64,000 bases of DNA, taken from NCBI GenBank assembly GCA_030264375.1, contig JASCQW010000119.1:7864026-7928025 (forward strand), in the 5' to 3' direction. The DNA comes from Carcharhinus longimanus (Eukaryota). Under the pieces are notes generated by a model that was given only the letters and a program-made list of their open reading frames with translations, did no database searches and was not told the origin of the DNA. Positions 18,561 through 63,741 of the stretch are shown one piece after another. Each line of letters starts with the position of its first letter. Within the stretch, counting starts at the first letter, position 1. Both the position numbers and the translations under genes were made by a program.

Positions 18561-18599
18561 ATCAGCACTCCAGCAATAATACAGATGTTTCAGAAGGGC

Positions 18600-24348: not shown

Positions 24349-24384
24349 AGGTGGCAAAATGCACTCGTGAACAGGAACATAAAG
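24349..24384 (+). CDS. Putative 36-nt phase-1 microexon (EVAKCTREQEHK), GC donor
   Basis: Acceptor ttttattttgcag and donor AAG|gcatgt. Its start resembles exon 28449. Confidence 0.55.
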
Positions 24385-24789
24385 GCATGTAATCGTGCTG
24401 TGTTTCTCTTGCTCCTAATTAACAATTGAAAATATTGGATCTTTGCTTTCAGTCTGATTGCCTTCGCAAGCGCTTGTTCATAAGAACTTGCTGCAATGTA
24501 TCAGGTGAACAATCGAGGCTTACATCGCTGTTCCCAAAATAATTCGGCCGAACGACGCTTCCGGTATTTGATGTTACGTCATGTTTTGACATGTGAAATA
24601 AGAAGCATGTCATAGAGTTGAATGCAGCATGATTTTTAAATATTACAAGGCACTTGGCTTATTACTGGCACGTACCACAAAAAATTGCACTTCCTTCCTC
24701 CTTTGAGCTAAATTAATTTAACAATGTGTTCCAAAACATTTAATTAGCAACAGTAGAAACCTGCCTTCATGTATTTGTTTTGCATGTAC

Positions 24790-26050
24790 ACCCCCAACGA
24801 GACCCCCTCAATGCGACCCGCTATTTTGCTGTGGGTCAGGTTGAGAGATGCACATGAGCGACGATTCGCAAAATTCGCACAAACGTTCCGGACGCATGCT
24901 CATTTCCCAACGCCGAAGAGCAGGCACTGTCGAGATCACGCTGGAAACCGGTGGAAAGACCACATGAACGATGTTAATCTGTTTTCAATGTGATTTTAAT
25001 GACATTACGGCGCCCGGAGCTTATAATATCCGTGCCCGATGGCATCTCCGACACCGGGAAGTGTATTTCACTCCGTAGGATTTGAGAGTAGCTCCCCACT
25101 TTCGGGGAACCAGCGGGATATCACGTTGGAGTTAAGTAGGCAATGCGGCCCCATTCATGGATCCTGAGACGGGGATGTGCTGACCCCGAGGCATGAAAAG
25201 TCTGGCAGTACCAGCCTATGCAGTCAAGTGGCAGAGCATCCTTGCACATGCGGGCATTTTGGCATTTCCCACCAGGCACCGGCAGTGCCTCGGGGGCGGA
25301 ACCTTGAGAACATGCCAAGTTTGCAGATCCTAAAGGGTTATGACGTATTCTAGAAAGACATGTTATGCAGTCTCACAACACCAGGTTAAAGTCCGAAAGG
25401 TAGCACGAGCTGTCGGAGCACCGCTCCTTCATGCCCTGATGAAGTATTTCCTGTGATTATGCCAGTCCAACGCCGCAAAACCCGCATTTTTTTCTTGGAC
25501 GAGCTTATTCGGTAAGGATGAGGAGTCTGGCTGCAATTCTGCATTTGGATCAATGGGGCCTGGATGGAGGCCAGAGATCGAGGTGGACCTGGGGAATGGT
25601 CTCTGTCGTGGTCCAGCTGCCATGTTGTGTCCTGTCAAGATGGGGAGGTCTGATATCCAGTGGAAAGGCATGTGCTGTTGAGTGGGAGGGGAAGAGGGGG
25701 CTGGAGATCAGGGTGTGCCGGGACAGGGGACATGGCTGGCTCTCGAATGCTTCTGCGGGACGGGTGGAAGGGCAGCACTGTGGGGTCTCGGGCTGGCCAG
25801 CAATCGATCTGGCTAACAAATGGGAGGTTGACATGTCGGGGTCACTGCGCATGCGCAGCAGCCCGGGCCTGTCAACGTCCGTCGTGAATAGACCACCCCC
25901 CCTAGTTTTTAATGACAATCACGATTTATCCTTCGCATTGCACAGAATGCGGGAGATTCGAGTCTAAAGACCCACTGAAGAAAGAGTCGTGACTTACCCC
26001 GTATTTCCCTCCATATCCGCACTTCGAACTCTTTTGGGAGAACCACCTGC
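24790..26050. mobile_element. GC-rich interspersed element, possibly a non-autonomous DNA transposon remnant
   Basis: Abrupt GC/CpG-rich block in an AT-rich intron with no coding motif. TIRs could not be paired. Confidence 0.35.
25355..25490. mobile_element. Penelope-type terminal repeat fragment
   Basis: tctcacaacaccaggttaaagtcc…gtagcacgagctgtcggagcaccgctccttcat resembles elasmobranch Penelope terminal repeats, with a decayed hammerhead-like hairpin. Confidence 0.55.
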
Positions 26051-26441
26051 CACCCTCCCACGCCCCCTCTCCCCTCCTGGCCCCCAATCTGTTTTCAGTT
26101 TAACTTCCATTGTTGGCGACAAATTATTAGCCTTTGGCGAATATGACCATTTCATCCAATAACATGGAATGGCGCATGTATCCATGCGTCTTTTCAATAG
26201 TCTTTCGAAGACTTTGGCACAAATAAGCGTTATTTTGCTTGGTTACCCATCGGTGAGCATCGGCAGTACATCCAGTATGGTTTACAATGCGCCAACTGCT
26301 ACAGTGGATCTCCGAATTTCTTTGAGAGACGTTATGACAATTTGAATTTTGCTGCCCCATTGAAAATGGGGACATAATTTAACGTTTGTTCCGATGAGAA
26401 TCTTGCATATCCTCACTGACCATACTCTGACAATGTAATAG

Positions 26442-26468
26442 GAATCGACCTGGCTGGAAAAGAGAAAG
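26442..26468 (+). CDS. Putative 27-nt phase-1 microexon (GIDLAGKEK)
   Basis: tag|GAATC…GAGAAAG|gtaaga. Strong donor, weak pyrimidine tract, and 3' end shared with the other 27-nt exons. Confidence 0.6.
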
Positions 26469-26749
26469 GTAAGAACAGGAATATAGCTGTGGCTGAATGA
26501 AATGTAATCACTTCATAGTTTCACCATTTCTCTTTCAGATATAGAACAAAAAAAAACACTGTGAATTAAAATAGCACGATTTGGAATGCAATACCGATTA
26601 CACAGAAGACAATCAGATTGTTCATCATATCCGCTGGATTCTGTAACAGCTGCTGGGCATATATGAATAAGAAATAACGTTTCAGTTGCAGACTTCACAT
26701 GCAGAATAAAACGAATCGTGGACAATCGGAGAGCAAGGAGGAAAGCAGA

Positions 26750-26791
<42 letters not shown>

Positions 26792-26810
26792 CATAATCAT
26801 AATCATAATA
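26750..26810. repeat. (AAT)n microsatellite followed by (ATCATA)n
   Basis: Directly visible in the sequence. Confidence 0.95.
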
Positions 26811-28448
26811 AAACACATAGATAGTCTTTCTCGTCTCAGATGGCAACATTAAAACTGAATAACCATTCAAAAACAAACACATTGAACACAGCAAGTGATC
26901 GATGAAGATATATTCAGTTCTGGATGGGGAGGTAGAAGACGTGATGAGTTCAAGACAGTGGGCATGGATCGCCATTAATGTAACTTGTAGCGTTACAAAA
27001 TTGAAGTGTTCGCAATTTGCAGAATTATTCCAGTACATTTTTAAATAAAAAAAACATTCATTATATTGTCCATCTTTTCCCTGAAAAGCAAATTATTTTC
27101 AACTGTCACTGTGTTTCACATTCAGCTTTTCGTCGCAGTGTTCTGGACATGGAAAGTGTGGATATGAAGCAACGTTTGCTGGGACAAACATGTCGATCCC
27201 ACATTTTCATGCTGCAAAACACTAACCAACTTTGAATCAACAACGTGTCATGTGATTTGAGTTCGCAATATTATGACGTCATAAACCAAAGGTCTGTGTT
27301 TCATTTGTGATAGATTCAAATGGGTTATTCTTTGCTTTTTGTTCTGCATACTACCTACCCACCTTGATGGCATACTTCCCTTACTTCACTGATATAACTG
27401 CTGCAAATATCAACAATAAATGCAAATTGTTCTATGATGATTGAGACATTCATGTTGAATAAAAACACGATTATCGACATCTCAAAAAATTTAGAAATTC
27501 ATTTGGACATTGGCTCAAATTGGCTTTAAATGCTGCAAGTGTTTATTTTTTTTTAACTCTGTGAGTGCGCAAGTGAATTACAACATTGCATTTCCAATCT
27601 CCCATGTATAGGAAAAAGTAATGTCCTGGTTTTACCTGTGCTACATGCGATACCACATCCACACCAGCCCATTCCAAAGGCATTCAGGAGTTCTCCCTAC
27701 CCAACTGAGCTCTGGAATGCAAAGACGTTTAGTATGTACGAATTAGCCGGCGTAAATGCGTGGACTCACAATGATAAGGCATGCGGTGGTGTGCACACAA
27801 GTACGAGGTTCTTTCGAAGAAACGACTAAATAAAATAACTCTCTACAGTGTAGAGAATCGGAGGCAATATGTCTACGTGGTGGCCGCATTTATGCCATCT
27901 TAATTCATCTAAAGCAACATTTACGATAATTAAATGCAGCAAACACATTCATTGCACGATGTGGTTAATTGTTTGTTAAACGAGTAATGTCCAGAGAGCA
28001 TTGAGCTAATTTTGCTGAAAATGAAGTTGCGTTTTCCACGCAACTTGGGTGATGATTCTATTTGTGGCTCAAAACGTTGTTCGATTGTTAAGTACTTCAG
28101 GTATCTTAACGCTCGTCGTCAAAGGAAATTGATTATTGATATACATATCAATATTTTGGACTCATTTATCGAATTCAATTGAATCGTATAATCATGGAAT
28201 CATAGACACCCAGAAGACCAATCGGTCCATTCATCTGCACCGACAACACGCTCACCCAGATTCTGATCTCTCTAACCCCAAATAACCCAGCCCATTTGAT
28301 TTTCCTACAGTTTACGTGCGTAAATGTCCACTCCGCGAACTCGCAGAGTTGTTGAAAATAGAATGTCATGTCTGACCACTTTTTGATCATAACGATTTGA
28401 GAAGACAACCCATATAATCTGAGCAAATGTGTGCGTCATTCCATTTAG

Positions 28449-28484
28449 AGGTTGCTCATCTCTCAGATAGAATAAAATCATTAG
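28449..28484 (+). CDS. Putative 36-nt phase-1 microexon (EVAHLSDRIKSL)
   Basis: cattccatttag|AGG…TTAG|gtaagt, a consensus donor. Heptad-like peptide. Confidence 0.72.
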
Positions 28485-30260
28485 GTAAGTCTAACTGAAC
28501 TGATATCTTCTTTCCACATATGTTGTCTGCAAAATTCAGTGTTGCCTACCGTGCGAATTGGCTTTGTTATACCAATTGTCTGAACAGATTTTTATTCTGA
28601 AATGGCCAAGTGACTCTGAATATGTCCCCGATTGTACATACCTCCGAACTGGCTTCATAGTGTGTTGGCAGAAACTATATCTGCATTGAGCGTACGCTGT
28701 TCTCATGCGAAATTGATTGTCAGTTAGAAACAGCTGAATCGCGTTATCTGTCATTCTCAGCGTCGGAATCTATTCTGTCTTACAAACAATGAAGATGCAA
28801 TTCAACAAGAGCAGTTAACGAAATGGTCGAAGTTCGTCCCCGTTTCCCCGAATGCAGGATACCCAATTTTGGGGACTCCTGTCTTTAATTCATGTCAGAG
28901 TTAGGCAGATGCAAAATGAACGAGAACTGCAACGCTATATGCGTCCATCCAGGTGTTGACCTGTTTCCATTCTACCTCCTCCCCCAACCCGAAGAATCAC
29001 CAGATTCTTCTCTTTTCCTCCCATTTAAAACTATTTTTGCTCTTTTGTTTTACTTTGCAGCATAAATTGGCATTGCGATGTGTTTCTTCAACTTCCACAG
29101 CTCTAAGTTATATGCAGCGTAATGTACAGAATGAGAAGTAATCGACTATTTACGTCATTTGCAATTAAATTATGAAATCTAACTGTCAAGTTAACACATC
29201 CAAACTGTTTTACTCAAAACCGGTTTAAAACATTATTAGTGATCTGCATTTTTTTTTTTCGCATTTGCTTGAAATCACCATGCAACAGGGGATATTTCTC
29301 TATCGCTGAAACGTCCAGCATATCTTGGATCCGAATGATCGGCGTGTCAATTTTGGCAGTCAGAGATAAAGTGTTTCATCGTTGTTGACCACAGTACACC
29401 CAAAAATACATCACAATATCATTAGATCACATTGTGTCATTTTGTAAATTCCTGCTGACTGCCATGTTTGAAACAGGGATGACAACTTGACCGTATTATT
29501 GTCATCATTATAAACTGAACATTTTCAGTAATTTTTTCTTTTTGTGGGAGGACTCCTATTCAGGAGGTGATAAGCATATATGACTCAACATTTTCATGCT
29601 ACAAAATGTTTGCATTCACTTACCTGGAATGAATGGAATACCCTTGGTGTTCCATTTTTGCCAGCAGGCAGTAAGTACACTGGAACAGGACTCCTTCACG
29701 CCAATACAAAAGGAGGAGTGCTGCTATGTTATGTTGCTCCTGCGATGTTTACCCTTACTGCAGTTTCGTGCATTATCACGTATCTGTCTCTATATAGTGA
29801 ATGTCATTACTCCTGTCCTTCCGACTGTAAAGGTGAGTATCGATGTTGTTGACTATATGATGCTTGTTTGAAAATCGAGGGCCTATTTGATCATCCAGTC
29901 CTGAAGTGTCATTTGGCCATTAAAGACTGGGAAAAGGGGAAAGTGAAAAGAAAGAAAGACAGAGATAAAGAGGCGGTTTGGGGGCGGAGTTGGTGAGGGT
30001 GGAGAGAGAGAGAGGGGCGGGGAAGGATTTGGAATTTGCAGATCGGTTCTTGTTTACTGAACTTTCACGTGGTGTGTTTAACTGACAGTGTAATGAATTT
30101 CCTTCACTGCCTCAGAGAGACAACTGAACGACATGATTGCAAGTAATTTCACTTAGTTTCTTTTGCAAAGTTCGATAATATCCATCTGCAAACTTTGCAT
30201 ATGTTAATAAAATCCACTGGGCTATAAATGCTGACCATTCGTTCTCACACCTTGTTACAG

Positions 30261-30287
30261 AGTACAAAGCTAAATGTGGAGAGAAAG
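30261..30287 (+). CDS. Putative 27-nt phase-1 microexon (EYKAKCGEK)
   Basis: ccttgttacag|AGT…GAGAAAG|gtgagt, both sites consensus. Confidence 0.65.
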
Positions 30288-30328
30288 GTGAGTTTTCTTT
30301 TGAGATAAGGAAATGATGCAATTTACAG

Positions 30329-30364
30329 AAGATTTACGAAAATATGTCAGTCGCACAGAACCAC
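30329..30364 (+). CDS. Possible 36-nt phase-1 microexon (EDLRKYVSRTEP)
   Basis: atttacag|AAG…CAC|gtaagt. Fits the 27/36 alternation but lies only 41 nt after the previous exon. Confidence 0.4.
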
Positions 30365-31369
30365 GTAAGTATCTGAAACGAGAGGAATATTCCAGCCTCC
30401 TATCATCAATTTTGTGCAATCTCTATCAATATCCACAGTAGAGCAAACCGCACAGTTCAGTACCCTTCAAATGTTGAAGTGTCTGATTTATGACTTGTGC
30501 CACCCAAAAATGGGGAGCGTATCCTCAACTTGTCAATGTATCACGCCTCCACGTGGACTATTTATGTACTGGATACTGAGTGGTATTGTTGTTGGCGACA
30601 ACGGAACTGCCGATAAATCCAAATGAAATCTGTGGGCAATATTCTAATTAGGTAGGGCTTGAAGAGATATGGCGAATGGGCAGACAAGTGGATTGGGAAG
30701 CCATGACGACGTCACCCATAATAATATGAAATGGCAGAGTATGTCCTGGGGCTGAATAGCTCGTCGTCCTTCTGTTGTGTCATGATTAACAAAGCAGATA
30801 ATCCAAGATGGACAATGAAGTGTGCAGCTGTCCAAGCCCAAACCAAACACTTTAACGAAATGCCAGCCTCGCGAATTACTACACAGAATTACCAGCAAGC
30901 CAGATAGCATAACCACCAAAGAACAGACAAGGAAAATATTTATCATTTACTCGATAAGGCCTAGGGATTGTAGTTCAGCATTTTGAATTCATAAACGGAG
31001 CTCAGCAACTGAACAATGCAGAGGTTAAAAAAAAACCTTCTCAAATATTCGTATCCTCAACGAGATGGAGGTGGCACATTATTGCAAAAGAGAGTGCTGA
31101 ACTAATCACAAAAATCGTTCGCAAGAATTACCAATTTGAAAAGACAGCTCGACAAACTGTGCAGGTAATTTGCATCACGTGTTGGCTTTCAACCATTTCA
31201 TTCGCTCAATGTCATGAAATAGCTGATCGTGGAGACGCTGAGTGCTGACGCCATTACCGGATCATGACTGGTCCAGAACACACGGTATGCCAGCAAGTCT
31301 GTTCTTGTATAAACTCAACAATTATTTTCAACCGTTAATTTTCTGAAAATATTCAGTTTGAACATGAAA

Positions 31370-32140
31370 TATATTAAAGGTTTAACGATTAACGGGGAAA
31401 GGGCCGTGGATCTTGTATGCATGGACTTTAGTAAAACATTTGGCAAGGAGACCCATTGCATGTTTTCCCAGAAAGTTAAATCACACGAGAACAAAAGTGA
31501 AGTACCGAGATGGATTCGGCACTGGCATGTCCACAGACGCCACAGGACAACGGTGGAAGGGTTTTTTTTTTCCTGAATCGATGTCTGCTATCAATAGTGT
31601 TCCCGAGTGATCGGAATAATGTTGCAATTTTCGTGGCCTCACTGCCAGAAGGACATGGATACTTTGGAGGAAGTACACAAACAAAAACAGGCTATTGCCT
31701 GGCATGGAGATGACTAGCCATGAGGAGAATTTGAAGACGCTGGGATTGGTCTCCCTGGGAAGACGAAGGCTGAGGGCAAATTGCTAGATTTGTTTTTAAT
31801 TATAATGAGAACAGTTGGAAGATTTATTTGTCCCCAGGGCAGGAATGATAATTACAATGGAGCACAAATTAAGGTTAAGATAGGGTTGTTTCAGTAGAGA
31901 TCTGTGAGTGAAACTTTGTTTTTGAACACAGTGTTATGCGGCCCTGGAATGCTCTCCCAAGTGAAGTTGTTTAGGGGGACACGTTGGTAAAATTTAAAAC
32001 TTCACTGGATACACGTATTAACAGACCCAGAGTAGAGAGATACAAGCATTTGGTCTCGACAGAACAATGCGATTAGCTTAGGCTTGCGTGGCCGATGTGC
32101 GTGCTCCTGCGCTGTACTGTCATTTGTTCTTTGTTCTTTA
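31370..32140 (+). mobile_element. Degenerate, internally deleted CR1 LINE
   Basis: AVDLVCMDFSKTFGK RT motif, AWNALP, and a 3' tail ending ttgttctttgttc. Confidence 0.8.
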
Positions 32141-34020
32141 AATACAGCGGTTAAAAAAATTGAAAACAATCGCTCAATACAAAGTGAAGGAACTGGCCTT
32201 CAGAAGACGCAGGCAAGCAACACTTCCATTTAAGTACCTCCTCCCTGAAGCCCATGTGGGGATCGGAAGACAATTCAGCTCTTTTTCTCTTAATAACGAA
32301 AGGGAAAAGGCGGGGTTTTTTAACACATGGGGTTGTGATTTTCTGGAAGAACTTACCACAGGGTGTTGTGGGGTGGGTGGGTGGGGGTCATTTTTCAACT
32401 TTAAAATACATTTAATCCGTTACATCGGTTACATGGGTAAAATAGTTACAGACAAATGTTGGCCAAACTTGGACTTCGTGTTTAAAAAAAGGTGGAATAG
32501 ACAAATTGGGTCGAAAGTTTTTTTTTCGTGCTGTAAGCCTCTGTCTCGACGACTGTATGTGGTTCGTAGATACTGAGGTAGGAATAACAAATCGAAGNNN
32601 NNNNNNNNNNNNNNNNNNNNNNNNNNNNNNNNNNNNNNNNNNNNNNNNNNNNNNNNNNNNNNNNNNNNNNNNNNNNNNNNNNNNNNNNNNNNNNNNNNNN
32701 NNNNNNNNNNNNNNNNNNNNNNNNNNNNNNNNNNNNNNNNNNNNNNNNNNNNNNNNNNNNNNNNNNNNNNNNNNNNNNNNNNNNNNNNNNNNNNNNNNNN
32801 NNNNNNNNNNNNNNNNNNNNNNNNNNNNNNNNNNNNNNNNNNNNNNNNNNNNNNNNNNNNNNNNNNNNNNNNNNNNNNNNNNNNNNNNNNNNNNNNNNNN
32901 NNNNNNNNNNNNNNNNNNNNNNNNNNNNNNNNNNNNNNNNNNNNNNNNNNNNNNNNNNNNNNNNNNNNNNNNNNNNNNNNNNNNNNNNNNNNNNNNNNNN
33001 NNNNNNNNNNNNNNNNNNNNNNNNNNNNNNNNNNNNNNNNNNNNNNNNNNNNNNNNNNNNNNNNNNNNNNNNNNNNNNNNNNNNNNNNNNNNNNNNNNNN
33101 NNNNNNNNNNNNNNNNNNNNNNNNNNNNNNNNNNNNNNNNNNNNNNNNNCCATTTCTCTTTAACAACACCCTCAGCACTCGTGCACAACATCCACAAGCG
33201 ATTTTCGCTAATTAACAAAATGGCTGAACAAAGGTTAGTTGATCAGGTATGGGATTTCAGACAGAACCAGATAGACCTTTAGCGGACCATTCACAATCCT
33301 TCCTCATCAAAATGTGTGAAAAAAAAAATATTCCGCAGATCTGTATGCATGCTACTTAGTTCGAGGACGTGGGCGACAGCAATATGTTCACAGCTAGTTC
33401 CCAGTCAGAATTTTGTGCCGAGTGTCTTTTTGAACGATTGCAATTCTAGAAGTATAGATAAAGCCGCTGTGCTGCAATCTAGATATGTCGAAGACGTTAA
33501 AGCAGCATATTCAGAAATGTCATCCCAGCGACATGTTTTGGAATACTTACTGCAATCAAAGTTTAGAAATGAAAATCAGATGGTCACGCTGCGCCACGTC
33601 AGAAGCTAAATGTCCAGTGATACCCTGACAAAGGTACACATTATCCTTATACAGTAATTTTGTAACATTATGTTTTATTCAGTAACACTGATTTTTTTAA
33701 AAAAGACGTCCACCTCAGCTCACTTTGTTGTCTGTGTAAGTAACGATGAAGCAGGGGAAACAAAAAATGCTCATTCATCCATTGTTCCACAAGGACGCTG
33801 CAAACATTGGCACGCCTTTCGTCTTACATTTGAACTTGCATATCTCGTTACGGAGCAGACAGTGCTGAAACACGTTGCAGGATAATTTTGTATATAATTT
33901 CACTTTGTGAAAACCAGTAGGAAAGGGTGACACGGATTAGCATCCTTCAGCGTCCTGACTTGCTTTTTCAATATTGTTTTCAAAATAATTAGTATTCTTG
34001 CATCGTAATCGATTAGGAGT

Positions 34021-34022
<2 letters not shown>

Positions 34023-34053
<31 letters not shown>
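34023..34053. repeat. (AAT)n microsatellite
   Basis: Directly visible in the sequence. Confidence 0.95.
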
Positions 34054-34057
<4 letters not shown>

Positions 34058-34562
34058 GAATAATGAAGATGCAACACCATTGAAAGTCATTCAGAACAAT
34101 ACCAACAAAAAAATACGCATGAGCTGTTTTGTTTTTACTTAGGTTGCACGACAACTGAGAAAAAAAAATGAAGACCGTTATTTGTCGCCATTGAATGCGT
34201 TTTCACCGACATTCTGGAAATGCCGTTTGGACTCGCCTTAATGATGAAGAATATCTTGGATCTTTATGTTTTTTTTTACTATATTTCTGTACATTGAGAA
34301 CTGAAGGAGCTGCAGTTGCATCCACCTGTATGTGTGTCATAAAAGTCAGCGCAAAGGACAAATCAGGTCAATATACGTTATGAAATACAGTAACTAAGAC
34401 GTATCAGGTGTTCGTGTGAATGCTTTCATCATTTAAGTGAATCTTCTTGATGACCCTATTATCAATACATACAGTTCCTTACATTTTGTGTCGTTTCGTG
34501 TAAAAGATTTTTCGCTGTTAATATTTTGTGAATACATAAACTTAATTGTCCCATAGGTCCAG

Positions 34563-34589
34563 AGATTGTATACCTGAGGCAGAAAGAAG
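34563..34589 (+). CDS. Possible 27-nt phase-1 microexon (xIVYLRQKE); 33 nt if the upstream acceptor (34557) is used
   Basis: ttgtcccatag GTCCAG|AGA…GAAG|gtcagt. Both acceptors preserve frame. Confidence 0.5.
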
Positions 34590-35979
34590 GTCAGTGATGA
34601 AAACTTACTGACGGAGTAATTACATTCATAACGGAGATGAAGTTTGTATTTAACTTACGGTAATGAATTGAGTAAACTCGGATTTGTGTGCAGCATCTTA
34701 AGATAAAACAAATAATAAAAAAAAATCACTGAAGTCTCTGGTTTTGGCATCAGAGAAAAGGTTATTGTACAGCATATATGTTACACGATCTTAACGTATC
34801 ACACGATAAATTTGACACAGACATACGGGAAATTGTTCCCTCCTGTTACATTTAGAACAATGCCACCACCATGGGAGTTATTCAAATTTTGTTACAAAGA
34901 ACATGCAGCAAGAAACATGGTTTGCGCTTCTTCACACGAATTAACGAAACATCTCAGGGTGCAAGTTGAAAGAAAAAGCAAATTATAGAACTGAAGAACG
35001 CTCAAGTTGTGTTAAATATCAATTGGAAGTTGTCAAGTCCTGAATATTACCATGACGAAAAGAATATGTTTGGCACAGTTGAAATGTGTTGAAACGCAAA
35101 CTATCCTTCAAATTTCACCAATATTTGGTGAAAATGGGACATAGGCGCCAGAACACAGGTATCAGGATCAACAAGTGTGTCCGGTTTCTGACGTGTTCTC
35201 ACGCCATAGTTTAGGAAGGAAAGATGGACAGTGACATTTTTTTGGCACGGCATACAATTCCGTTCGTGTCGAACGTTGCCATGAAAAAAAAGATAGCAGA
35301 GTAGCTCCCACTTTTAATTAAGTCCCGAAGATTAGTTTCATTCAGGTAGAAGAAATCCACTTCCAGAGGAAAAAAAAATCATTAGCTTCAGGTGGGCAAA
35401 CGCAACAATTTCGAAGGCAGAATGACAAAATACTGCAGCTTCCAATTTAAAGCTACTGTAAGGAACGGTTGTGGCTTCTGCAATTTGCTGTATGCTCGAC
35501 AGGACTGGGTCCCACTGTAGGAAAGTGAATCAGGAGCTGCCTGCTGCAACAAGACAGAAACCTAGTTTTACTGGCGATTAATGGCTGCAATACATCTTTC
35601 AAACCTAATTAGTTGCTCTCAGATGATATAGGTTAAGCTGCTAAGATCAGTATTATTTCTGTTGCCTGCTTTGACTAAGATACCAAAAAAAAAAGCTGCT
35701 GTCAGAACAAGCAGAAGGTTAAACGCTGATTTTTTTTTAAGAGAAATTTCAATTGAACAACCTGCAAGTGAGATAGCTGCTGCCAAATTTTCTGAACTCC
35801 CCATGATAATTGAAGACCGGTGGGGCTGCATAATTACTTTGTGCAACTGTTTTTCTTTCGTGCCGACCATTTGTATTGTGTTGACAATATTTCTTTCCCA
35901 CAAAAATAACTTTACTTCATGGTCTAAAAGAAAACCTTAGGCTCTACTGAACAGACAAGTTATCATTGATTGTGTGCAC

Positions 35980-36212
35980 CTAAAGAGAAAACGTTGCAAT
36001 ATCTCAGCAAGTCTGATAGCATTTGTAAGGAGGGAAATGAGCTGATTTTTCGAGTCCAGTCGGCCATTTGTCAAAGCATTGACAAAAGGTCATCTGGACT
36101 CGAAACACCAGCTTTTATCTCTCATTTTAGACGCTGCCATGCCAACTGAGGTTTTCCAGTTTTTTCTTACTTTTGGTTTCAGTTTCCAGCATCCGCAGTA
36201 ATTTGCTTTTTG
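35980..36212. mobile_element. Palindromic Penelope-derived element
   Basis: Imperfect inverted repeat centred at ~36077 (36040-36074 vs 36079-36113). Ends ttccagcatccgcagtaatttgcttttt. Related to 57195-57332. Confidence 0.75.
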
Positions 36213-44500: not shown

Positions 44501-44934
44501 TGAACTTTGTCCAGCTTGGATTTAATGCGGGCTATGTGTTGCAATTGACTGTAACTTACTTTAGATTGCCAATACGTTAATTCCTAAGATACAATTTTAA
44601 TTTGGACTCAGTAATACGCTGTTGTCGAAAAGATAAACAATTTATCCCGAACATCAAATGGTCTCTTTGCATCTCATTCAGCGTTAAGCCACTGCTACAT
44701 GCCACTTCAAGTTTGCAAAAAAAAATTGCACTGAAAATCATTATATAGTCCTTGTATCGCGGATATCCGAGTGAAACTTTTACCTTCTCAGAGTGCGTTG
44801 TGTTTTGTGTCATTACAATCTTTCACTATGCCTGCCAATTCCTTGAGGAATTTCTTATCTGGGACCTCAAGGAAAATCTGTAGATAATGACAAATACCTC
44901 ACCACGGACAAATGTTGACTGGTAGACACACAAA

Positions 44935-46165
44935 TAGAGTCATGAAATCATCGATTTCGCAGCATGAAAACAGGACCTTCGGCCCAAATTGCCCGTAAAA
45001 TAAACTGAGCTAAAGACAGTTGTCCGCATTTCGTCAGTACGTTTCTCTTCCTATAATTCCCTTGTAACTGCCTAAATGTTTTTTTTTAAGAGAACATTGT
45101 ACCTTTCTTTCTTACAAACTCTCGCAGCTTGCTCCAGCCGCTTGCCGCTCTCTGTGCAAAAAACAACCCTCTGGACATTTTTGTATCTCTTCTCTCCCAC
45201 TTTAAAACTATGTCCACGATTTTGAGAACACCTATATTTTGGAAAAGATATTGACTATCTTGCCCCTGATTATTTTATAGACCAATTTCAGATCAATTCT
45301 ATGCTTCAGGGAAAAAAAAAATCCATATCTATCCATCCTCTTTTTATAACTGAAATCATCACTTTTCGGTAGCATCCTAATTAATACTTTCTGCATTCTT
45401 TCTACTTTAATTATATCTTTTGTATTATAGGGCGACCAGAACTGTACACGATATTCCAAGGGTAGCCATATCAATGTCATGTACAACATCAAGAAAATGT
45501 CCCATCTCCTGTATTCAATGTTCTGACTTATGGAACCAAGCATGTCTTATTTTGTTCAACATTGACTACATTTACAAGGAGCTATAAACCCTGTACCCTT
45601 TCATCTCTTTCCTGTATAACTCTCCCCAACGCCCTACCATTATCTGAGTAAGATCTGCCCTGGTTCAATATATAAAGTGCATCAGTTTGCATTTGTCTAA
45701 ATTAAATTCCATCTGTCATTCGTCAACCCACTGGCTCAATTGATCAAAATGCTGTTGCAATCCGACATGGCCTTCTTCACTGTCCACTATGCCACCAATC
45801 TTCGTATCATCTGCAAACTTACTAACCATACCTTCTATATTCTCATTCAAATCATTACTATAACTCGCAAAAAAAAACAGTGGTCCCAGCAATGACCCCT
45901 GAGGCACACCGCTGGTCACAGGCCCCTACGTTAAAAACAAACAAACAAACAAACCTCCACGACCACCCTCTAGCTTCTGTTATCAAGCAAATGTTGTATC
46001 CATTTTAGTTACCTCACCACGGTTCCCGTGAGGTTAAACAGTATGCCAGAAACTACCATGAAGTAATTTGTGAAAGGCTTTGATAAAGTCATGTACCCAG
46101 CATCAACAGTACTGTCCTCATCTACCTGCTTGGTACCCCTTCAAAAAGCTCAATCAAATGTGTAC
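44935..46165 (-). mobile_element. CR1 LINE fragment
   Basis: TSGVPQGSLLGPL, SKFADDTKIGG, PLEYRVQFWSPY and 3' tail at ~44940-44990. Confidence 0.92.
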
Positions 46166-46272
46166 TTTTGGTTACAAATATTGATATGTTGGCTACAGTT
46201 GCAAATAATGCCATGTCTACGAATCTGTTTTATTTTCAAACGTTTAATTAAATAATGACCGTTTATTTACAG

Positions 46273-46299
46273 AGGAGATATTACAAAGGAAGGAAAAAG
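46273..46299 (+). CDS. Putative 27-nt phase-1 microexon (EEILQRKEK)
   Basis: gtttatttacag|AGG…AAAG|gtaaat. Confidence 0.72.
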
Positions 46300-47989
46300 G
46301 TAAATATTGTCCATAACTATGCATTCGAATTGAACACAGTGTTTTCTGCAAATCTGAACTGGAAAATATGGCATTCAACCAATCGAAGAAGATTACCCGT
46401 TCCATTCAGTCATGAGTATCTGAGAACGAATATCTTGCCAGAATTCGATGATTATCTAGAATTGGCAGTGACAGTTCAGAACGTTGCCCATAAAAGGCAA
46501 CGACCTAAACATACATTCCATGATGAGAGGAATAAACACACATTTTAATGAAGTTCAACAGGAATCATTCTCTCCTTTTGTACTAGGTTAAATAAAAAGG
46601 GACGTGGTCGGATTTCTGATTGGCCAGTTCTAGACCTAGGTTAAAGCTCAACGTTCCCAACAAATGGTGGATTTTTTTTTTAGATAACTGATATTCGACG
46701 TCCAATGTTGACAGTAGAAGCATTGGTGTTTGTTTTAAACCAAAAAAAAAATCTTTCGCCCACTTTCATTGGGCAAAATAATCAGCTATGATGCATGAGG
46801 TTTCACACCGGAAGCCGAACAATTGTTACAATTCAGAGTTAAATCCCTTTGGCTTGTTTCGTAATCTGGTTTAATGTTTGGGAAGGTGTTCGTATCAACG
46901 TTTAGAGATTCATTATGACAACGGTCTGGCACTCATTTCAGTTGAATTAATATAAAGAGATTTATTTAATCAAACGGGAAGTTTAACTAAACAAATAGCC
47001 TAACAATTAAAGTTATGTTCAACTGGAATGCTGTTGAAAGAAATCCAGAAATAATTCACCAAGTAATAATACAAACTTCTATATATAACAGGTTATGTGT
47101 TTTTGAAAATTAAAACTTTGGAGTTCTATCGATGTCGCTGTCGGTAAAGTCCTTCTGATTTTGTACCTTTTTGGTCGATAGATGGAGAATTATCTTAAAG
47201 ATATTTCTAACTGATAGGGAACTGTTCTCGCACTCTGCGTGCTGAGAGATGACAACTTTTCAGTTCAACTTGATTGAAATGAACGGAAATTAAGGCTGGC
47301 AGTTGAGTTCCTATTTTTATACCCCGGATTAAATTTCGATTTTCTGTGCTAGGATTTAGATGAGGTCGTCAACGACAGTAACTTCAAAATCGATTTGTTC
47401 TTGACGGCTGCATTATTTGACTCCATGATTATTAGTTCACTTCTAGACTTTGGGGCATGAGCTCTTTTGTTCTAAATTTCAGGTTTAATAGCCCATGTCG
47501 TTACCACTTTTGTCTCCAAAGCAACACCGGATTTTGCAACATTTCCTCGCTGACATCGCCACTCACCTTCAACGTTGTGGCTTTCAGATCTTGTCTTAAT
47601 TGTCCAATTTAAATCTATACAAGGATAGTTTTTTATTTTGTTGTCCGCAAAGTTTCATGTGCTGCAGCTTGGCGAATGAGAATTCTATACCTGTCGGGCT
47701 CTGTTTCAGTTGTGCTCTCTTCTGTTCTCCAGTAAGGCGGCATTGATCCTTAACGCTTGATAACCGTGAAAATAACTGTCGAAATATATGGACAATGCAG
47801 ACTCGCGACCTCATGTTGCGCAAAGTGTTCCTGGGCATCCATTTTTCCACTGAATGTTGTTTTTGAGCTACTCAATTTACAAAGTAACACAGCGGAATTC
47901 CTCACGTGTTCTGTCTGGACAAATGACATCATAATCTTTTGCGGCTACTCCATGCTTTCATCTAAAGCGGGGGCAGCAAATTGCAACCA

Positions 47990-48800
47990 TCTATTCCTGT
48001 TGCATTTTGAACTTCCCTTCACTTCCTTGACGTCTTTGTCTATGTTTCTCCCAATGGATTGCCCACTAATATTATTGAAAATCCATTGAACGCCAAAGGT
48101 TCAAATAAGACCACTCTTCAGATCCCACGTCCTCAAATTTCTGCAGCCTATTCTCTAGGGTTAATTCACCTCCCTTCCACCTATTCGATAAAGCGACTTT
48201 CAAAAATGGCGATGCTTGTATCCCCTACATTTTTCTCAAATTTGGTTCCCATCCAGTATGGTTTACAGTGGACTTAAACGTCTCAAAAAAAAACACTGCT
48301 TATCCGTTACCAAATACTCCAAAATCTGGATAGGCTCACTCATGTACTCACTGTTCACACTGCCAGCGTTCCCTGAAATTTCCACCAACTTCAACACCAT
48401 GCCACAGCAAAACACATCCGTTATTTACTGCTTCTGTCAGCAATCCACACAGACCTTTGCTCAGAAATGCCCTGTTCCGCACAGCCACCATTCCCAGCAC
48501 CAATTACCCTGCCCACAGGACCTTCTCATGCAATTATAGATGGTGTTGCTGATTTCCATACGCCGTGCTCAACGGCTAAATACCCACACGCTCTTTCCAG
48601 TTGAATCAGCGCTTCCACAACTTTGTTAATTTTGCAACTTTCATTTGTTGCACCCAATGTGCTTTACTGTCGCTCACAGAGTCCCGAGCAGTGATGAAGG
48701 TTTTTTTTTTGTTTTGACCGTATTTCCAAACATTCTCCTGTCGCCTGCTGAGCCATCCAATTGTTTTTTTTTCCTGTGGTTGTTTCAGATTCAAACATCC
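47990..48800 (+). mobile_element. Degenerate Penelope-like element (RT C-terminus to GIY-YIG region)
   Basis: LHFLDVFV-like RT motif (~48020) and nucleotide resemblance to elasmobranch Penelope ORF ends (aatttccaccaacttcaacaccatgccac…cttctcatgcaat…ttgcacccaatg). Recognised from memory. Confidence 0.6.
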
Positions 48801-49378
48801 AGAGTAATTCGTGGTTTTTTTTAATCATCACAACGCTGCCTGCGTTCAGACATTGGCCTTTCATCACCATGATCACAGTGCATATTGACCATCCTGGATC
48901 ATGACCCTGATGTTTGGAATCAGTTCAGAAATGCATATCGTGCCCTACATTTCTGTAATCAATTTATTCTCAGCCTGAATGAGAGTCAAGCTTTGACACT
49001 TAGAACTCATTTCATGCCACTACAACATGTTCCAATGATTTCAAAGAAACATATAGTGAAAGAATAAATCACAGACTGATTGTTTTTTGATGGTGAAAAA
49101 CGTTTACGTCGTTGCACAAAATTGTCCAGAAATTCAGTTGCGTCATTGTTCTGCCATTAGTTGATATAAGCTCAAAATACAAATGTCGATTCAGCTTGAA
49201 GTAGAGATGGCGAAGCATGCAACAGACAACTCTTCTGTTCAACTCACCTGGCCCAATTCAGCAGACAGTACAACCTTAGACATTAAAGTCCCATTAATTA
49301 TTTGCCCCCAAAAAATGTTTTGAAATTTATTCGTATCAATTGACAATTGTAATCACATTTCATGCCTTACTTTTCAAG

Positions 49379-49414
49379 ATCTACGAGATTGCCTTTCGAA
49401 AATCAAGGAGCTTG
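49379..49414 (+). CDS. Putative 36-nt phase-1 microexon (DLRDCLSKIKEL)
   Basis: ccttacttttcaag|ATC…CTTG|gtgagg. Clear heptad peptide. Confidence 0.72.
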
Positions 49415-50799
49415 GTGAGGAAATCACATTGTTTTGATAAAATGCATCCGTAATGTTTACTTGTGTTTCAGCTATGCGACAATTTTGCATGTTCCTTTAA
49501 CAAATTGATAGAAGAAGATGCAAATCCGTTTACTTACGAATATTTAAAACGCATCATAAACTGACGAAAAAAGTTAATCATTTGGGACAGGATAGAAATA
49601 TTTTTAACAAATGTGATGGACACAACAGTGTAATTAGACGCCTCTGTCATTATTGTTGTGAAGCGCATTTTCAATCATAGATTGTAGTTCCATCTGCATC
49701 ACCTCATCTCTTCTGCCAGCGCACTCGACGGAAGCGGCAAGCAAAACATGAATGGAACAATAAACATCCCCAATTTCATGAAGAGTTGTTGCCCGAACAA
49801 GACAACTTATTGAAGCTGTTTTGAGGCAAATCAAAGCGATAATGAGTAAAGACAGAATGATCGTTCATTTTGTGGTTCCAATCAGTGCAAGGGTTTGTGT
49901 TTAATGCAACAGCGGGCCAAATTGTTGGGCCAGGTACATGGGTTGATGGGATGCAATTCTATTTGCAGATTGGTCATAATGATTTGTCTGCGATTTAGAA
50001 TTGCACATCTCCAAGCTAGACACCCAGGCCATGCAGACACAACGCTGCATTGCATGGCAAGGCCTTCAAGATAGAACAGGCTGCAAGATAAAACTTTGGA
50101 AAATTGCAGGGAACAAAATACCCGTCTCAGATGAGCTTAATGAATTCCGTGCCTACACTGAGGCTGCCTTGTTCGGGTGACCACTCTTCGTGAAATTGGG
50201 GGTGTTTATTGTTCCTTAATAGTTATCCGTAAAACAAAACAACAAAACAAAACACTGTTATAATCACCAGACACACGTTTTACCCCTTGAATGAACGGGG
50301 CAAGAGACCCGTTGCATTTGGTGGCCTGGCTTGGAATTTGCCATTGCAGGCAGGTGAGGAATGGAATGTCAGAAGAACAGCTTGTCAACGGATCCCAAAA
50401 TGTCTCTGCGACTTGCGCCATTGTGCTATTTTTCTTTTGCAGCTTCCCGTCCCGGAAATTTCAGTTTTAATACAGTTGCAACAAATCACCATGTGCTATT
50501 TAAGGATACCAGGCAAGTGCACTGCTTAGTTTGCTGATTATAGGTCTTCAGATCTTCATTGCGTTTAAACTGAGCATTGATCAAACAGTGTGGAAAGAAA
50601 TCGCACACTCTGAGAGGGGTGCAGCGACAATCGTGCTCTCTGTTGCCGTTGATGAACGTTGGCCACTGCGGGGCCAGCGAGGATTCCTGTTAAAGCAGCC
50701 AACAAGACAAAATGGTGGGAAACTTCAGAACCATCGGAGAGTTCCACGAGGAAACCGCCACGTGGTCGTTTTACAGAGATTTAACATTTTAATTATCTT

Positions 50800-53700
50800 G
50801 AAAGCGATGAAAATTTTATTGATTTTCCAGTATTCCTGAGCACAGTGGGGAACAAACGTACAGAGACCTAAGGAGCATGCTGAAGACAGATGCACCAGTT
50901 GTTAATCAGTCGCAGATTTTCGCAAGTAACTGAATATGCACTTCGCGCCACAACCGTTGAACATTGCAGACACGTGCAGGTTTAAAGCAGGGAAAACTGA
51001 TGGGAGAAAACATTGTTAAATTTGTCACGAGTATCAAAAGCCGGACAAACTATTGTCATTAAAGGTGTTTTCGTCAGAAGCCGATGCACGACCGTCCTGC
51101 ATGAGGATTGCAACATGAATAAGCTCGGGAAAGTTCGGTGAAAGAAGAACAATTTGTTTTTAAAAGGGATTATTTTTTACAGTATCATGAAAGGGGATGC
51201 AACTCGGGCACGAGGGCAACAGTATAAAAGATCGTGGGCGTTCAAGGACAATCAGTTAAACAGAAGGGTTGTCATTGTGGTAACGAGTCTGCAATGAGAC
51301 CAGTGGCTGAATGAGAACAGCTCAATGTGGAAGTTGCAGAAAAAAAAATGGTAATTTCGCCCGTAAGTGAACAGCATCATGTCCCAGGATGCGGTGAAAG
51401 AGAAACGGTCAGGACACATGACCTGCAGGAATTTGCAGGTGGACAATATTGAGGGAGGAATGAATCAGAGGATCCTGAAATCGAAGAGAACCAACGAAGG
51501 GATGAAATTTAAACCTCACGTGTTGTCAACACATGGTGTTGTAGAGCTGCTTTGGTCGACGTTCAAACTGGACGGGAAGATAATAATGATGGAAATGTGC
51601 ACCGCGGCGGCGGTACAGTTGATTCCTGAGCGTATATCTGAAGAGAAATTGAATCGCTTTTCACTGAAACCCTCAAATACTGTTCTGAAATATTTGACGG
51701 GTCAGATGCACTGAGCGACAATTGTGCACGTCTACACTTGTACTTAAGAAAATGATTTGTGCTGCGTTGTTCGGAAGAATTTGGGCCAAGCCGTTGATAG
51801 TACATTGGGAAGTAGGAAGCAGACTCACAGAAGCTCGTTCGGACGTGGACAACTCTTTGCAAAGATACAAGGAAATATTTAATTGTATGCTTTGGAAATA
51901 CAAAGGAGTAGACTTAAGCATAGGACTGAAACCGGGAGTTCACCCAAGGAGCATAAAAGGGGTTTACCAGTACAATGTGCAATTTGACCCGAAATTGAGG
52001 CCGAACTGGAGTTCTTGGTGGAGTTGGCAGCATTGGAACAAATGGTCATGAGTGACTTCCGCGTTAAATAGCCTTCCTCACACATCATTTATCTCCATCA
52101 GCTTATTGGGGGGGGGGGGGGGGAGCAAAATATATATTTCCCAAGCTCATTTACAAATGGTGGCGACCGACATTTCAAAACCCATTTAATAATTAACGTC
52201 CAAAATAGTTCGACAACACTTTGGAGTTGCATTTACTTGAGTCATAATCAAGATCAAAGGGATAAAATCCTAAATGTGCTCCTGTTGGTGCAATAATACT
52301 TGGTGCAATAATTAGTCACGGGGACCACCCCCGAGGAAAGATTAGATCATCTACAAGAGACGCTGAAGAGAATGCAATCACATTCTCTGAAAATTAGGAA
52401 ATACACAGGTGAAATTTTCAAGCACTCAGTGGATTATGTGGACCGTCGATATTGAGGTGTTGAATAACGCTCCAAAGTAACTGGTAAACATGACAGAGGC
52501 GCCCATGCCTTGGATATTCCATCAGTTGAGATTCTTCCATGAACTGATCAATTGTCAAGGCAAATGTGTCCTGTATTTGTTGATGACTTTGAAGTATTTG
52601 CAACGACAACTGATGAAAACTCAATTTTAACAGTGAACGATATAATGCGATAAGACCTATGAAGCGACAAAGGGGGCGTGAAGTGGGACTTTTTTCTAAT
52701 AAACTCACACCCAGTTAGTTCTTTATTAGGCATGTGACATGTCTCCATAGTTGGGAGGTCGGGGCGGGGGGCGGTCGTGGCAGTTTTTTTTCGAAGTGAT
52801 GGCCAATGGGAAACATCAGGCAATTGCTATCACGTTCTGGACACGTTCTGAGGCAGACTAAAATTACTCCCAGATTAAAAAAAATAAATAATTGTCGTAT
52901 CTAATTTTGTTTCATCTGGCGACATTTCCATAATTTGCTTATGAGGGGAAATGTGTCTTGTTGCTGAAGCATTAATCACTCACACGGAAGTTGATTCCAT
53001 ATGTCGGTATTCCATCAGTGGCTGCCACGGGGTTGCAAAGGTAGGTACTGATCGTGTGAGGTAATTGGTATAAGCTCCTTTACTGCCACTTGGATCTACA
53101 GGTCAACGCACGATTTTTCGAGATATTCTGCACCTGTGCACAGGCGTGTTTCGTGGAGACGGTGAAGATTATGCGTATTCCAGAAGAGAAAAATGTTCTG
53201 ATTGCAAATGTGAACGCTAAACCAGCCAAAAGAAAGTATCACATACCAGTGGAAAATTTACAGTCTCGTCCCACAAAACATCCTGCTCGAGGTCAATGGG
53301 CAATTGCATTGTCTCACGCTCTCCGATTTGAGAGTGGACGGGGCGTTTAAATTATGGGGACTGAGTCAATTGATAGAACTGGTCTGGAAGGGAGACAACC
53401 TATCACAAGAAGGACCCAGAATTGAAGTCTGAAAAAGACAGTGAGGAATTGCAGTGCAGGATCACTCCATCTTGTCGGTTGCGTATGTCGTTCTTCAGAC
53501 TGTCTTGCCTGGGGACGAGCTGGACGACGTGATATGTCAGAAACAGTTGATATGAGTTACGGCTGGTGGCCAAATATTGATGCTAGAATAGAATGAAAGC
53601 AGGAGCATATGTAACACGTTCCCAAATTCGGAAAGCAACACCATATTACCAATATATTATTTTGTTTGGCCAAGAACGCAATGGGAAAGCGTCCATATCG

Positions 53701-55150
53701 ATTTCGCTAGGCAAGTGGAAAATCACAAGTTACGAATGAAATTGCTGCATAGCNNNNNNNNNNNNNNNNNNNNNNNNNNNNNNNNNNNNNNNNNNNNNNN
53801 NNNNNNNNNNNNNNNNNNNNNNNNNNNNNNNNNNNNNNNNNNNNNNNNNNNNNCTGCATAGCCGAAATGCCCGAAAGTGATTTTCATGAAAACAATACTA
53901 CAGAGTTGGCCTTGAAAATGTCCGAATTCCGCCAAGTTTGATTAATGAGAGAAAGTGGTGAACGTCAACGGGCTGCAGTTTGTGTAACCAGAATTTCACG
54001 AATACATGGAACTGTATGCCATTTGGCTTTAAAGTTGAGGACCATATTCCCCGATGACGAATGGTACAATGGAGCGATTTGTACATTCGGGTAATCAGTC
54101 GTTGGAGATTTCAAAGGGGGCAGGATCATTAAGGTGATAAACAATTTTCTAAGTGTGAACAGAAACACATCACATGCAATGATAAGTGGCCATCAGCGAC
54201 GGTGATGCTGTGAAGACATTATTTATTGATTCAGGAAGATGGGCAGAGATTAGACAAACGATGACATGGAGAAAAGAGAGGCAGAAATAGTTCAGAGCTG
54301 CACATAAAAACTGTCAATTTTTCAAGAATGCATTGTAGTCCTACTGAGAAACTGTGCGCAGGAGAGGGATTGAGTCTCTGCAATGATAATAGCGTGAAGC
54401 ATAGAGCTGACCTCGAATATGTAGATGGGAGATGGATTGGACTGGCTTGGACATGCAGGCCAATTAGTCGCTCCATCTATTCCAGATGCAGAAACACCAG
54501 CTCAGGAGTTGGAGACGTTTCAGCCAGAACTGAAAGTGCTCGAAGGAGGAGAGCATCCTTACTCCTTCTTCCGATGAGCCAGGAATACAAGCAGTGATGA
54601 TTGATAATGTGGGTATGGATGATTCCCTGAAGCTCCCCTCAGCAGAGACAAGATCGTTGGGTAGAATTTGAAGGNNNNNNNNNNNNNNNNNNNNNNNNNN
54701 NNNNNNNNNNNNNNNNNNNNNNNNNNNNNNNNNNNNNNNNNNNNNNNNNNNNNNNNNNNNNNNNNNNNNNNNNNGCAGTTTCCAGCACCTAGGCAACAAC
54801 GTCCAAACAACTGCAAGTCTTTGGAACGATAGATCTTCTCGATAAAACATTGGCCGTTTGTTGGGAGGTGAAGTGTTTTTTTTTATTAATGTCTGTAACT
54901 GGTACATTCATGACTTTTTATAGAAATAGCCAATTGTAATTTCTGGATGAGCATGAGCGTGTTGCATCGAGGACTGTTATCTTTGTGCGGCACAACCCAT
55001 TGCCAGAGATAGGTCAAGTGACGAGGGGTGACGTCCCCAGAATCCGCCTCAGCAGGCAGCTGAGTGCATAAGGGTGAGAACAACACTTCGGCAATAAAAC
55101 TTTATTTGTTTGCTACTGACACTCCTCCGTGTGGGTTGCTTGAAGTAACC
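50800..55150 (+). mobile_element. Degenerate Mag-type Ty3/Gypsy LTR retrotransposon
   Basis: Gag FLSTVG…TYRDLRSML…HFAPQPLNIAD, zinc-knuckle remnants ~51270-51370, protease LDGKIIMMEMCTAAAVQLIPE, RT remnant LVTGTTPEERLDHLQETLKRM, RNase H and integrase remnants (WWPNID at ~53565). PPT-like gggaggtgaag before a TG at 54874, and AATAAA at ~55093. Confidence 0.85.
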
Positions 55151-55728
55151 ACTCCCAGTGGGTTTAAACTTAAAGAAAGCATCACTTGCGCTCCCAGAAA
55201 ACTACATAATATTTAAACGTGCATGATTATTAATCATTTCAACTGTAGATCACTCATTTGCTTCATATTGTGAAACATGAAATAGGGCTGATGGACAGGT
55301 TTTTTTTTAGAGGTGATCGGTGTGTTTTCTACTGCTTTGTCTTCATACTGAAACGTGACAAAGCTGCTGTTGCAGCTTCATTGGCCGATGGCTGAGTTAC
55401 AACTGGTGTTAGAGTTCAGTTTTTCCAGTTAAATAATTTCGGGAGTAGTTTGGTTATTCCTGTTTCAAACTATTTGATGTTTCTTAAAGAGCAAAAGAGA
55501 AGCTTGTTGTTGTTTATTTGTCACTGACAACGACATTCGTCGAGTTATCAGAGTATGGTAGAACATCTGGTCTCTAAGTGTCATTCTGGCCAAGTGTTTC
55601 GTTTTTGAGCGTCAAACAGAGTTTTAATTCTATCTCATTGTTTAACAGTAGCTTTGAATAGAAATCAAACTGGAAATGTCGAGCGATTTATTAATTAATG
55701 ATCGAAATTTTGTTTTGTCATTTGACAG

Positions 55729-55755
55729 AAAATGTATTTGATGAGAAAGAAACAG
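55729..55755 (+). CDS. Putative 27-nt phase-1 microexon (ENVFDEKET)
   Basis: ttttgttttgtcatttgacag|AAA…ACAG|gtagac. Confidence 0.68.
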
Positions 55756-63735: not shown

Positions 63736-63741
63736 ATAATA

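Follow-up and report, generated by a model that had tools for sequence, protein, structure and literature searches.

Micro-exons of 21, 27 and 36 nucleotides in the shark Carcharhinus longimanus and the B30.2-ended gene to which they very probably belong

Exons of the window and of the surrounding array

The window analyzed here is a stretch of 64,000 nucleotides (nt) from the shark Carcharhinus longimanus (contig JASCQW010000119.1, below C119, positions 7,864,026-7,928,025), and its subject is a series of exons of only 27 and 36 nt on the forward strand. An earlier note on this DNA had described ten such segments as a hidden gene of frame-preserving micro-exons encoding a coiled coil. The analysis of the window, its flanks and related loci indicates that these segments very likely are exons of the middle part of a giant shark gene, of which the earlier note had about 4% in view, and we have little doubt that they are real and belong to a gene that ends in a B30.2 domain. 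The features are listed below, with positions counted from the window start unless C119 coordinates are given.

1..64000, + strand: the whole window, inside the inferred gene
24349..24384, + strand: 36-nt phase-1 micro-exon with a GC donor; Cys at core position d
26442..26468, + strand: 27-nt phase-1 micro-exon; acceptor weak, donor strong
28449..28484, + strand: 36-nt micro-exon; four of four core positions hydrophobic
30116..30142, + strand: 27-nt micro-exon overlooked in the earlier note, first 27-mer of a 36-27-27-27 unit; 118-nt intron to the next exon
30261..30287, + strand: 27-nt micro-exon, second type
30329..30364, + strand: 36-nt segment listed in the earlier note, probably not part of the chain; would need a 41-nt intron and has no hydrophobic core residue
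34563..34589, + strand: 27-nt micro-exon, third type
38359..38394, + strand: 36-nt micro-exon
46273..46299, + strand: 27-nt micro-exon
49379..49414, + strand: 36-nt micro-exon; every core position hydrophobic, Cys at d
55729..55755, + strand: 27-nt micro-exon
57796..57822, + strand: candidate further 27-nt exon, doubtful; low score, sequence with two other copies nearby
C119:7,277,150-8,524,510, + strand: micro-exon array, exons of 21, 27 and 36 nt, phase 1
C119:8,528,663-8,529,183, + strand: terminal B30.2 exon; 172 codons open from a strong phase-1 acceptor to the stop, AATAAA about 190 nt further on

All ten segments of the earlier note were found at their positions, preceded by AG, followed by GT (GC at 24349) and open in phase 1, and all ten lie outside the sequence repeated within 864 kb of contiguous flanks, which accounts for about 18% of the window. 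The strict 36/27 alternation that had been claimed did not hold, because the 27-nt exon at 30116-30142 had been missed and the segment at 30329 is probably false. The latter would require a 41-nt intron after 30287, while the shortest among 147 neighbours in our exon catalogue is 81 nt and the vertebrate minimum lies near 65-70 nt; it has hydrophobic residues at none of its four core positions, and no counterpart was seen by eye behind seven homologous 27-nt exons. A DNA-like sequencing run, which may be of the source sample, agrees with the assembly at this 41-nt gap. The most likely local exon order is 36, 27, 36, 27, 27, 27, 36, 27, 36, 27. With a splice model trained on 84 exons outside the window, nine of the ten listed segments scored at least 11, and the one at 26442 failed through its acceptor (-8.2, with a donor of 12.6). 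Upstream of 24349, low-scoring 36-nt candidates occur at 12543-12578 and 14899-14934, and no convincing exon was found between positions 1 and 24349, a stretch that includes about 1.4 kb of N. The introns hold fragments of reverse-transcriptase frames of the long interspersed nuclear element type (7588-7730, 21027-21590 and 40696-41542), which we take to be CR1-like.

The chance background was estimated using a generic splice score, which was based on approximate textbook frequencies and was identical on both strands. The data showed 13 phase-1-open candidates of 27 or 36 nt on the forward strand of the window, all ten listed segments among them, versus two on the reverse strand and 1.8 ± 1.1 (maximum 5) in 40 Markov shuffles, so that the comparison with the minus strand and with shuffled sequence, which had been proposed in the earlier note, came out in favor of the segments. 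In the 864 kb of contiguous flanks there were 52, 70 and 52 forward-strand candidates of 21, 27 and 36 nt, and 11, 11 and 8 on the reverse strand, while each of 43 other lengths gave only 2-16 forward candidates. Phase 1 was open in 174 of the 185 forward candidates of these three lengths and closed in only 11, the other phases being open in 98 and 92, while the 52 reverse-strand candidates were open about equally across the three phases (30, 30 and 36).

The array spans about 1.25 Mb, with 182 exons catalogued on the forward and 13 on the reverse strand: 148 versus 11 in the 864 kb, training exons included, and 34 versus 2 in a further 264 kb. These 182 exons amount to about 1,700 residues in 1.13 of about 1.26 Mb, of which about 105 kb is N. 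Since the catalogue threshold captured only six of the ten accepted exons of the window, a total of 250-300 exons is extrapolated rather than counted. Beginning near 7.277 Mb, the array continues with a block of 21-nt exons (43 of the 148 catalogued in the 864 kb, mostly in one run at about 7.41-7.75 Mb), then with units of 36- and 27-nt exons, and ends at 8.524 Mb. A lone immunoglobulin (Ig) exon inside the array, at C119:7,559,206 (7,559,208 in another count), belongs to HEPACAM2, is 97% identical to a catshark protein, and was for this reason rejected as an ectodomain of the array gene. The remaining HEPACAM2 exons lie on contigs C132 and C190, so that a contig was probably misplaced in the scaffold here. 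Further upstream, several Ig-domain matches (HEPACAM2-like C2 and V-set) were seen at C119:4.6-5.1 Mb and 1.1-3.6 Mb.

The B30.2 exon, 665 kb downstream, is intact and in phase with the array. It matches SPRY (E 1e-13) and gave no match to the Pfam PRY model, and the best solved-structure match of the domain profile is the B30.2 domain of BTN3A1 (E 2e-31). A genome search for SPRY, in which the best 150 of 182 candidates were scored, gave 141 matches, six of them on C119, at 6.33 (-), 8.53 (+), 9.02 (+), 9.09 (-), 10.68 (+) and 11.29 (+) Mb; among the candidates scored there was no further match between 6.33 and 8.53 Mb. The strand of each micro-exon block, sampled up to 9.96 Mb, follows that of the neighbouring B30.2 exon, and because the two switch in step, the region is a cluster of such genes, apparently with two head-to-head arrangements. 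The genome holds eight family members, six on C119 over 5 Mb and two on contig C81 (94.27-94.34 Mb and 91.99 Mb), where they lie inside a large cluster of TRIM and butyrophilin B30.2 exons. The member at 94.27-94.34 Mb is short, about 75 kb, and its first exon has a ZIP zinc-transporter gene about 26 kb upstream. At C119:8,528,155, 481 nt before the B30.2 exon, a 27-nt AG..GT segment carries a phase-1 stop, with which the DNA run agrees, and resembles the penultimate exon of the paralogs when read in phase 0; it is either a decayed exon or a switch yielding a rod without B30.2. The next forward block starts at 8.599 Mb without a recognizable 5' end; possibly the unit has a second, alternative end in the B30.2 exon at 9.02 Mb.

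The coiled-coil rod and its relatives

Hydrophobic residues recur at positions 2 and 5 of the 21-nt exons, at 2, 5, 9 and 12 of the 36-nt exons, and at 4 and 7 of the 27-nt exons that follow a 36-mer (in 0.84 and 0.79 of 19 pairs, respectively). A 36+27 pair is thus hydrophobic at 2, 5, 9, 12, 16 and 19 of 21 positions, which is exactly three heptads. In this way the 21-residue unit proposed in the earlier note is borne out, and its hidden gene of frame-preserving micro-exons is supported. As a description of exons chosen by splice signals alone, residues at core positions are hydrophobic or Cys in 243 of 452 cases versus 175 of 992 elsewhere, and Cys stands at d in 35 of 226 cases, at a in 5 of 226 and elsewhere in 23 of 992; the minus-strand control gave nothing of the kind. 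Units of 36-27-27-27, with an intron of 81-128 nt between the first two 27-mers, occur in the window and elsewhere, and by arithmetic their 39 residues equal four heptads and a hendecad. Because every exon is phase 1-1, duplication, loss or skipping of exons would alter the length of the rod without breaking the frame. The cleanest family member for experiments is the paralog at C119:9.34-9.50 Mb on the minus strand, in which 36- and 27-nt exons alternate nearly regularly across most of those listed and Cys stands at position 5 (core d) of most 36-mers. An AlphaFold prediction from a six-sequence alignment was unusable (mean pLDDT, the predicted local distance difference test score, 38.9).

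Relatives of the terminal domain were sought with a profile of the six C119 B30.2 exons among 1.84 billion representatives. The search returned eight single-domain matches at 140-240 bits, the next being at 126; six were named models from sharks, rays and chimaeras, a seventh falls in a cluster with a named skate model, and the eighth has no name. A word-index search with the B30.2 exon had yielded 118 generic TRIM and butyrophilin proteins, 24-43% identical, but none of the close relatives from cartilaginous fishes, which the profile search found. A midpoint-rooted tree of 45 domains (14 from this genome, 31 hand-picked from about 280 proteins) placed 16 of them on one side with 100/100 support: eight from this genome, seven named chondrichthyan and one unnamed. 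On the opposite side were the butyrophilins (two shark and five tetrapod rows), TRIMs and NLR B30.2 domains. The relatives are XP_042192744, XP_007898089, XP_038668997, XP_055510696, XP_069775384-90, XP_038672306-10, XP_042191566-8 and XP_078422387. Their database names are automatic (nuclear-pore anchor-like for XP_042192744, myosin-2 heavy chain-like for XP_007898089, TRIM39/69-like for relatives), and most of the chondrichthyan models capture only the 3' end. To all appearance the family occurs in cartilaginous fishes alone. These searches, which used the B30.2 domain and could therefore miss a rod-only homologue, gave no ortholog model for the window gene, and literature searches, in which subscription journals were largely not covered, gave no description of the family. 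Other long coils with SPRY (Atlas clusters of 1,579, 1,277 and 1,802 residues; scores 0.92, 0.90 and 0.79) were kept as leads only, their taxa being given as Chordata and most carrying PRY, unlike the exon of the shark family; teleost B30.2 proteins of 700-1,100 residues are unlike the rod, and one placed in the tree fell outside the clade.

The relatives also match the micro-exons. In catshark XP_038672306, residues 230-236, 238-245, 247-254 and 256-270 correspond to four micro-exons that follow one another in the C81 paralog, in register and with one junction residue between each. Directly before the B30.2 domain of XP_038668997, seven of eight residues agree with the final micro-exon of the 9.09 Mb gene. 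The chimaera model XP_042192744 (1,697 residues) joins a coil to a B30.2 domain of the same clade, and in its rod the core motif L-x-x-C-x-x-x-L surrounds 11 of 24 Cys. The two annotation versions of the chimaera model of about 1,700 residues differ by 12 indels, four of 9 and four of 12 residues, and isoforms differing by 9-residue cassettes occur in catshark, Narcine and chimaera, with one Narcine difference of 6. Such gene models would normally rest on RNA alignments. These database isoforms are in agreement with the idea of the earlier note that length could be tuned by frame-preserving splicing. XP_042192744 also contains, at about 900-1015, a Thr/Ser/Pro/Asp-rich 8-residue repeat of about 13 copies, which breaks the coil, and near its N-terminus paired basic clusters, which resemble furin sites.

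The proposed protein and its alternatives

The explanation that we favor, with confidence about evenly poised, is a giant shark gene of 21-, 27- and 36-nt exons predicted to encode a coiled-coil rod of at least 1,700 residues with a B30.2 domain, likely secreted and likely forming dimers stitched by Cys. To judge from two relatives, a signal peptide would direct the chain into the secretory pathway, where two chains could zip into a parallel coil with disulfides between d positions. Cysteines at d suit inter-chain disulfides in model peptides, and a coil rises 0.1485 nm per residue, on which the predicted rod length of 250-400 nm is based. The paired B30.2 heads carried by such a rod may bind a partner or other rods and thus build a fibre, gel or tether, and exon duplication and skipping would tune its length. 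More tentatively, and at somewhat less than even confidence, we propose a previously undescribed family that predates the divergence of sharks and chimaeras. Its megabase-scale genes of 200-300 micro-exons would be among the most exon-rich of vertebrates, and its secreted, disulfide-stitched rods, up to about 400 nm long with B30.2 at the tip and set in length by exon copy number and skipping, would form an extracellular fibre or gel of cartilaginous fishes.

Several observations weigh against the favored explanation. That all exons from 7.28 to 8.53 Mb form one transcript is inferred; with pieces out of place in the scaffold and about 105 kb of N, this continuity is unproven. Core residues and Cys were counted in largely those exons from which the a/d register had been taken, so that the counts describe the pattern and do not test it independently. 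Duplicated exons are barely constrained: eight pairs gave proportions of nonsynonymous and synonymous differences (pN, pS) of 0.28 and 0.41 and an identity of 0.70 in the exon versus 0.73 in the flank, frame and pattern being kept while sequence turns over fast. Over the chimaera model as a whole, a 3.5 periodicity does not come out cleanly. Neither at the gene nor in four paralog 5' regions was a first or signal-peptide exon found, and signal-like starts occur in only two of seven named relatives, both gene-model predictions; the other five have their start within the coil, at the domain or in sequence that looks unrelated, and seem to lack part of the 5' end. Both signal-like starts, of skate XP_055510696 and chimaera XP_042192744, have Met and about 12 hydrophobic residues, but in the chimaera a basic run follows, as after a membrane anchor. 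The deficit of glycosylation sequons in this shark's exons (3 versus 6.2 expected, P 0.11) is not significant. Finally, the B30.2 domains of butyrophilins and TRIMs are cytosolic. Among the rejected candidates, an excess of 52-nt segments (15) yielded no signal exon, and the best look-alike, at 7,258,996, lies in a simple repeat and has a poor donor, the scans giving only chance-level candidates.

A substantial, though lesser, possibility is that the same rod lies inside the cell, as a soluble or N-terminally anchored coil with B30.2, akin to a BG or butyrophilin tail without the Ig head. It would then resemble zipper protein or enterophilin and serve as a cytoskeletal or membrane tether, its Cys being small core residues or cross-linked late as in hard keratins. 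The cytosolic B30.2 domains, the basic run of the chimaera and the signal exon not found at this gene fit such a location, as do the heptad exons that encode cytoplasmic tails in BG and butyrophilin genes (PMC8813856, PMC5938342). On the other hand, the hydrophobic starts have a 19-residue hydropathy of only 1.5-1.6, versus 2.9 for a shark butyrophilin membrane exon, and are short and, by this comparison, too weak for a membrane span; in skate, acidic residues follow. The concentration of Cys at d and the scarcity of sequons in the chimaera rod (2 versus 8.2 in local shuffles, P 0.005) also argue against the cytosol.

It is unlikely that the gene limits differ, such that several shorter genes share 7.28-8.53 Mb or one longer unit ends alternatively in the B30.2 exon at 8.53 or at 9.02 Mb; such limits would be compatible with either cell location. 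The exons of 8.60-9.02 Mb, which start without a recognizable 5' end or 21-nt run, the gaps and misplaced contig of the scaffold, and 8.33-8.49 Mb, which was only sampled, leave room for such limits. Against them stand the single strand over 1.25 Mb, with one B30.2 exon and no internal terminal or initial exon found, and the chimaera model, in which coil and B30.2 domain share one chain of 1,700 residues.

A true butyrophilin with an extreme tail, its Ig and membrane exons hidden in gaps or misplaced, is highly improbable. Exons of 21 and 27 nt in phase 1 before a B30.2 exon are the plan of a butyrophilin tail, two paralogs lie on C81 among butyrophilin and TRIM B30.2 exons, and 12 gaps (about 14 kb) remain upstream of the gene. 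Yet none of the 82 open frames upstream of the gene matched any Pfam family, and none of 95 upstream of two paralogs matched Ig, RING or B-box families, while at a control butyrophilin locus three of ten frames matched V-set, C2 and PRY-SPRY. No convincing membrane-span exon was found in the scanned 5' regions; at a control shark butyrophilin the membrane exon was recovered. The ZIP gene close upstream of the C81 paralog, the chimaera protein, for which no Ig domain is listed, and the B30.2 clade, which leaves out the shark butyrophilins, also speak against it. Genome searches gave no B-box match in the cluster among the best 150 of 277 candidates, and that for V-set, in which the best 150 of 928 were scored, is weak evidence.

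Chance AG..GT segments picked by eye, or the decayed exons of a dead gene, are refuted as a whole: about two candidates are expected per window strand, one of the ten is probably of this kind, and the segment before the B30.2 exon has a stop, but the length, strand, frame and heptad statistics, the intact B30.2 exon and the few candidates closed in phase 1 leave this explanation hardly credible.

Whichever side of the membrane the rod occupies, a multi-megabase cluster becomes visible behind annotation stubs, since annotation pipelines yield short TRIM39-like stubs or myosin and TPR names for such genes. The heptad-per-exon design of butyrophilin and BG tails is carried several-fold further, with the 21-residue unit cut 12+9 and the 39-residue unit 12+9+9+9, and the splicing of hundreds of 21-36-nt exons across kilobase introns offers a natural test bed. 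If secreted, the rod would bring B30.2 to the tip of an extracellular fibre and might account for shark materials as yet unexplained; a cytosolic rod would bear on the origin of BG and butyrophilin tails.

Comparison with known systems

The earlier note had suggested inspecting the flanks for Ig, membrane, B30.2 and lectin exons and had pointed to butyrophilin and BG tails, to a lineage-specific receptor and to the stalk of CD23. The B30.2 end agrees with the butyrophilin lead, but in the regions scanned no Ig or membrane exon was found, which also speaks against a receptor; a CD23-like lectin does not fit, because the terminal exon is B30.2, and no lectin motif pair was present in the loci examined. 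Since the scans turned up neither an Ig or membrane exon nor a RING or B-box, the gene is neither a butyrophilin, nor BG, nor a TRIM.

In the literature, the tails of BG proteins carry 27-38 repeats encoded by 21-nt exons and lack B30.2, butyrophilins have a few heptads and B30.2, and cartilaginous-fish butyrophilins are known (PMC8813856, PMC12841164, PMC5938342, PMC13749957, PMC4046983). The chicken BG genes, members of the butyrophilin family that include a soluble zipper protein, share with the shark gene a long coil whose numerous 21-nt exons are symmetric and begin with a split codon, as well as a varying exon number and a tandem gene cluster (PMC5938342, PMC8813856). They differ in having IgV, a membrane span and no B30.2, while in the shark Ig and membrane exons were not found and the gene ends in B30.2. 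The shark gene also has at least about 170 exons of mixed 21, 27 and 36 nt and Cys at d, and its core residues fall on codons 2 and 5 of the 21-nt exon, compared with 4 and 7 in BG.

The butyrophilins BTN3A1, BTN2A1 and ERMAP resemble it in that short phase-1 heptad exons lead to a terminal B30.2 exon, likewise of phase 1, but they have few heptads, IgV-IgC and a membrane span, and the shark's own butyrophilins lie outside the family clade. Class IV TRIM proteins (TRIM39/69-like) also place a coiled coil before B30.2, while in the shark gene RING and B-box were not found and the coil is many times longer and built of micro-exons; for the chimaera protein, too, neither RING nor B-box is listed. 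Enterophilins have many heptads and B30.2 without Ig, and thus share with the shark gene an Ig-less heptad rod. They are rodent, intracellular proteins of tens of heptads, in contrast to the longer shark rod, and the likeness is probably a parallel invention.

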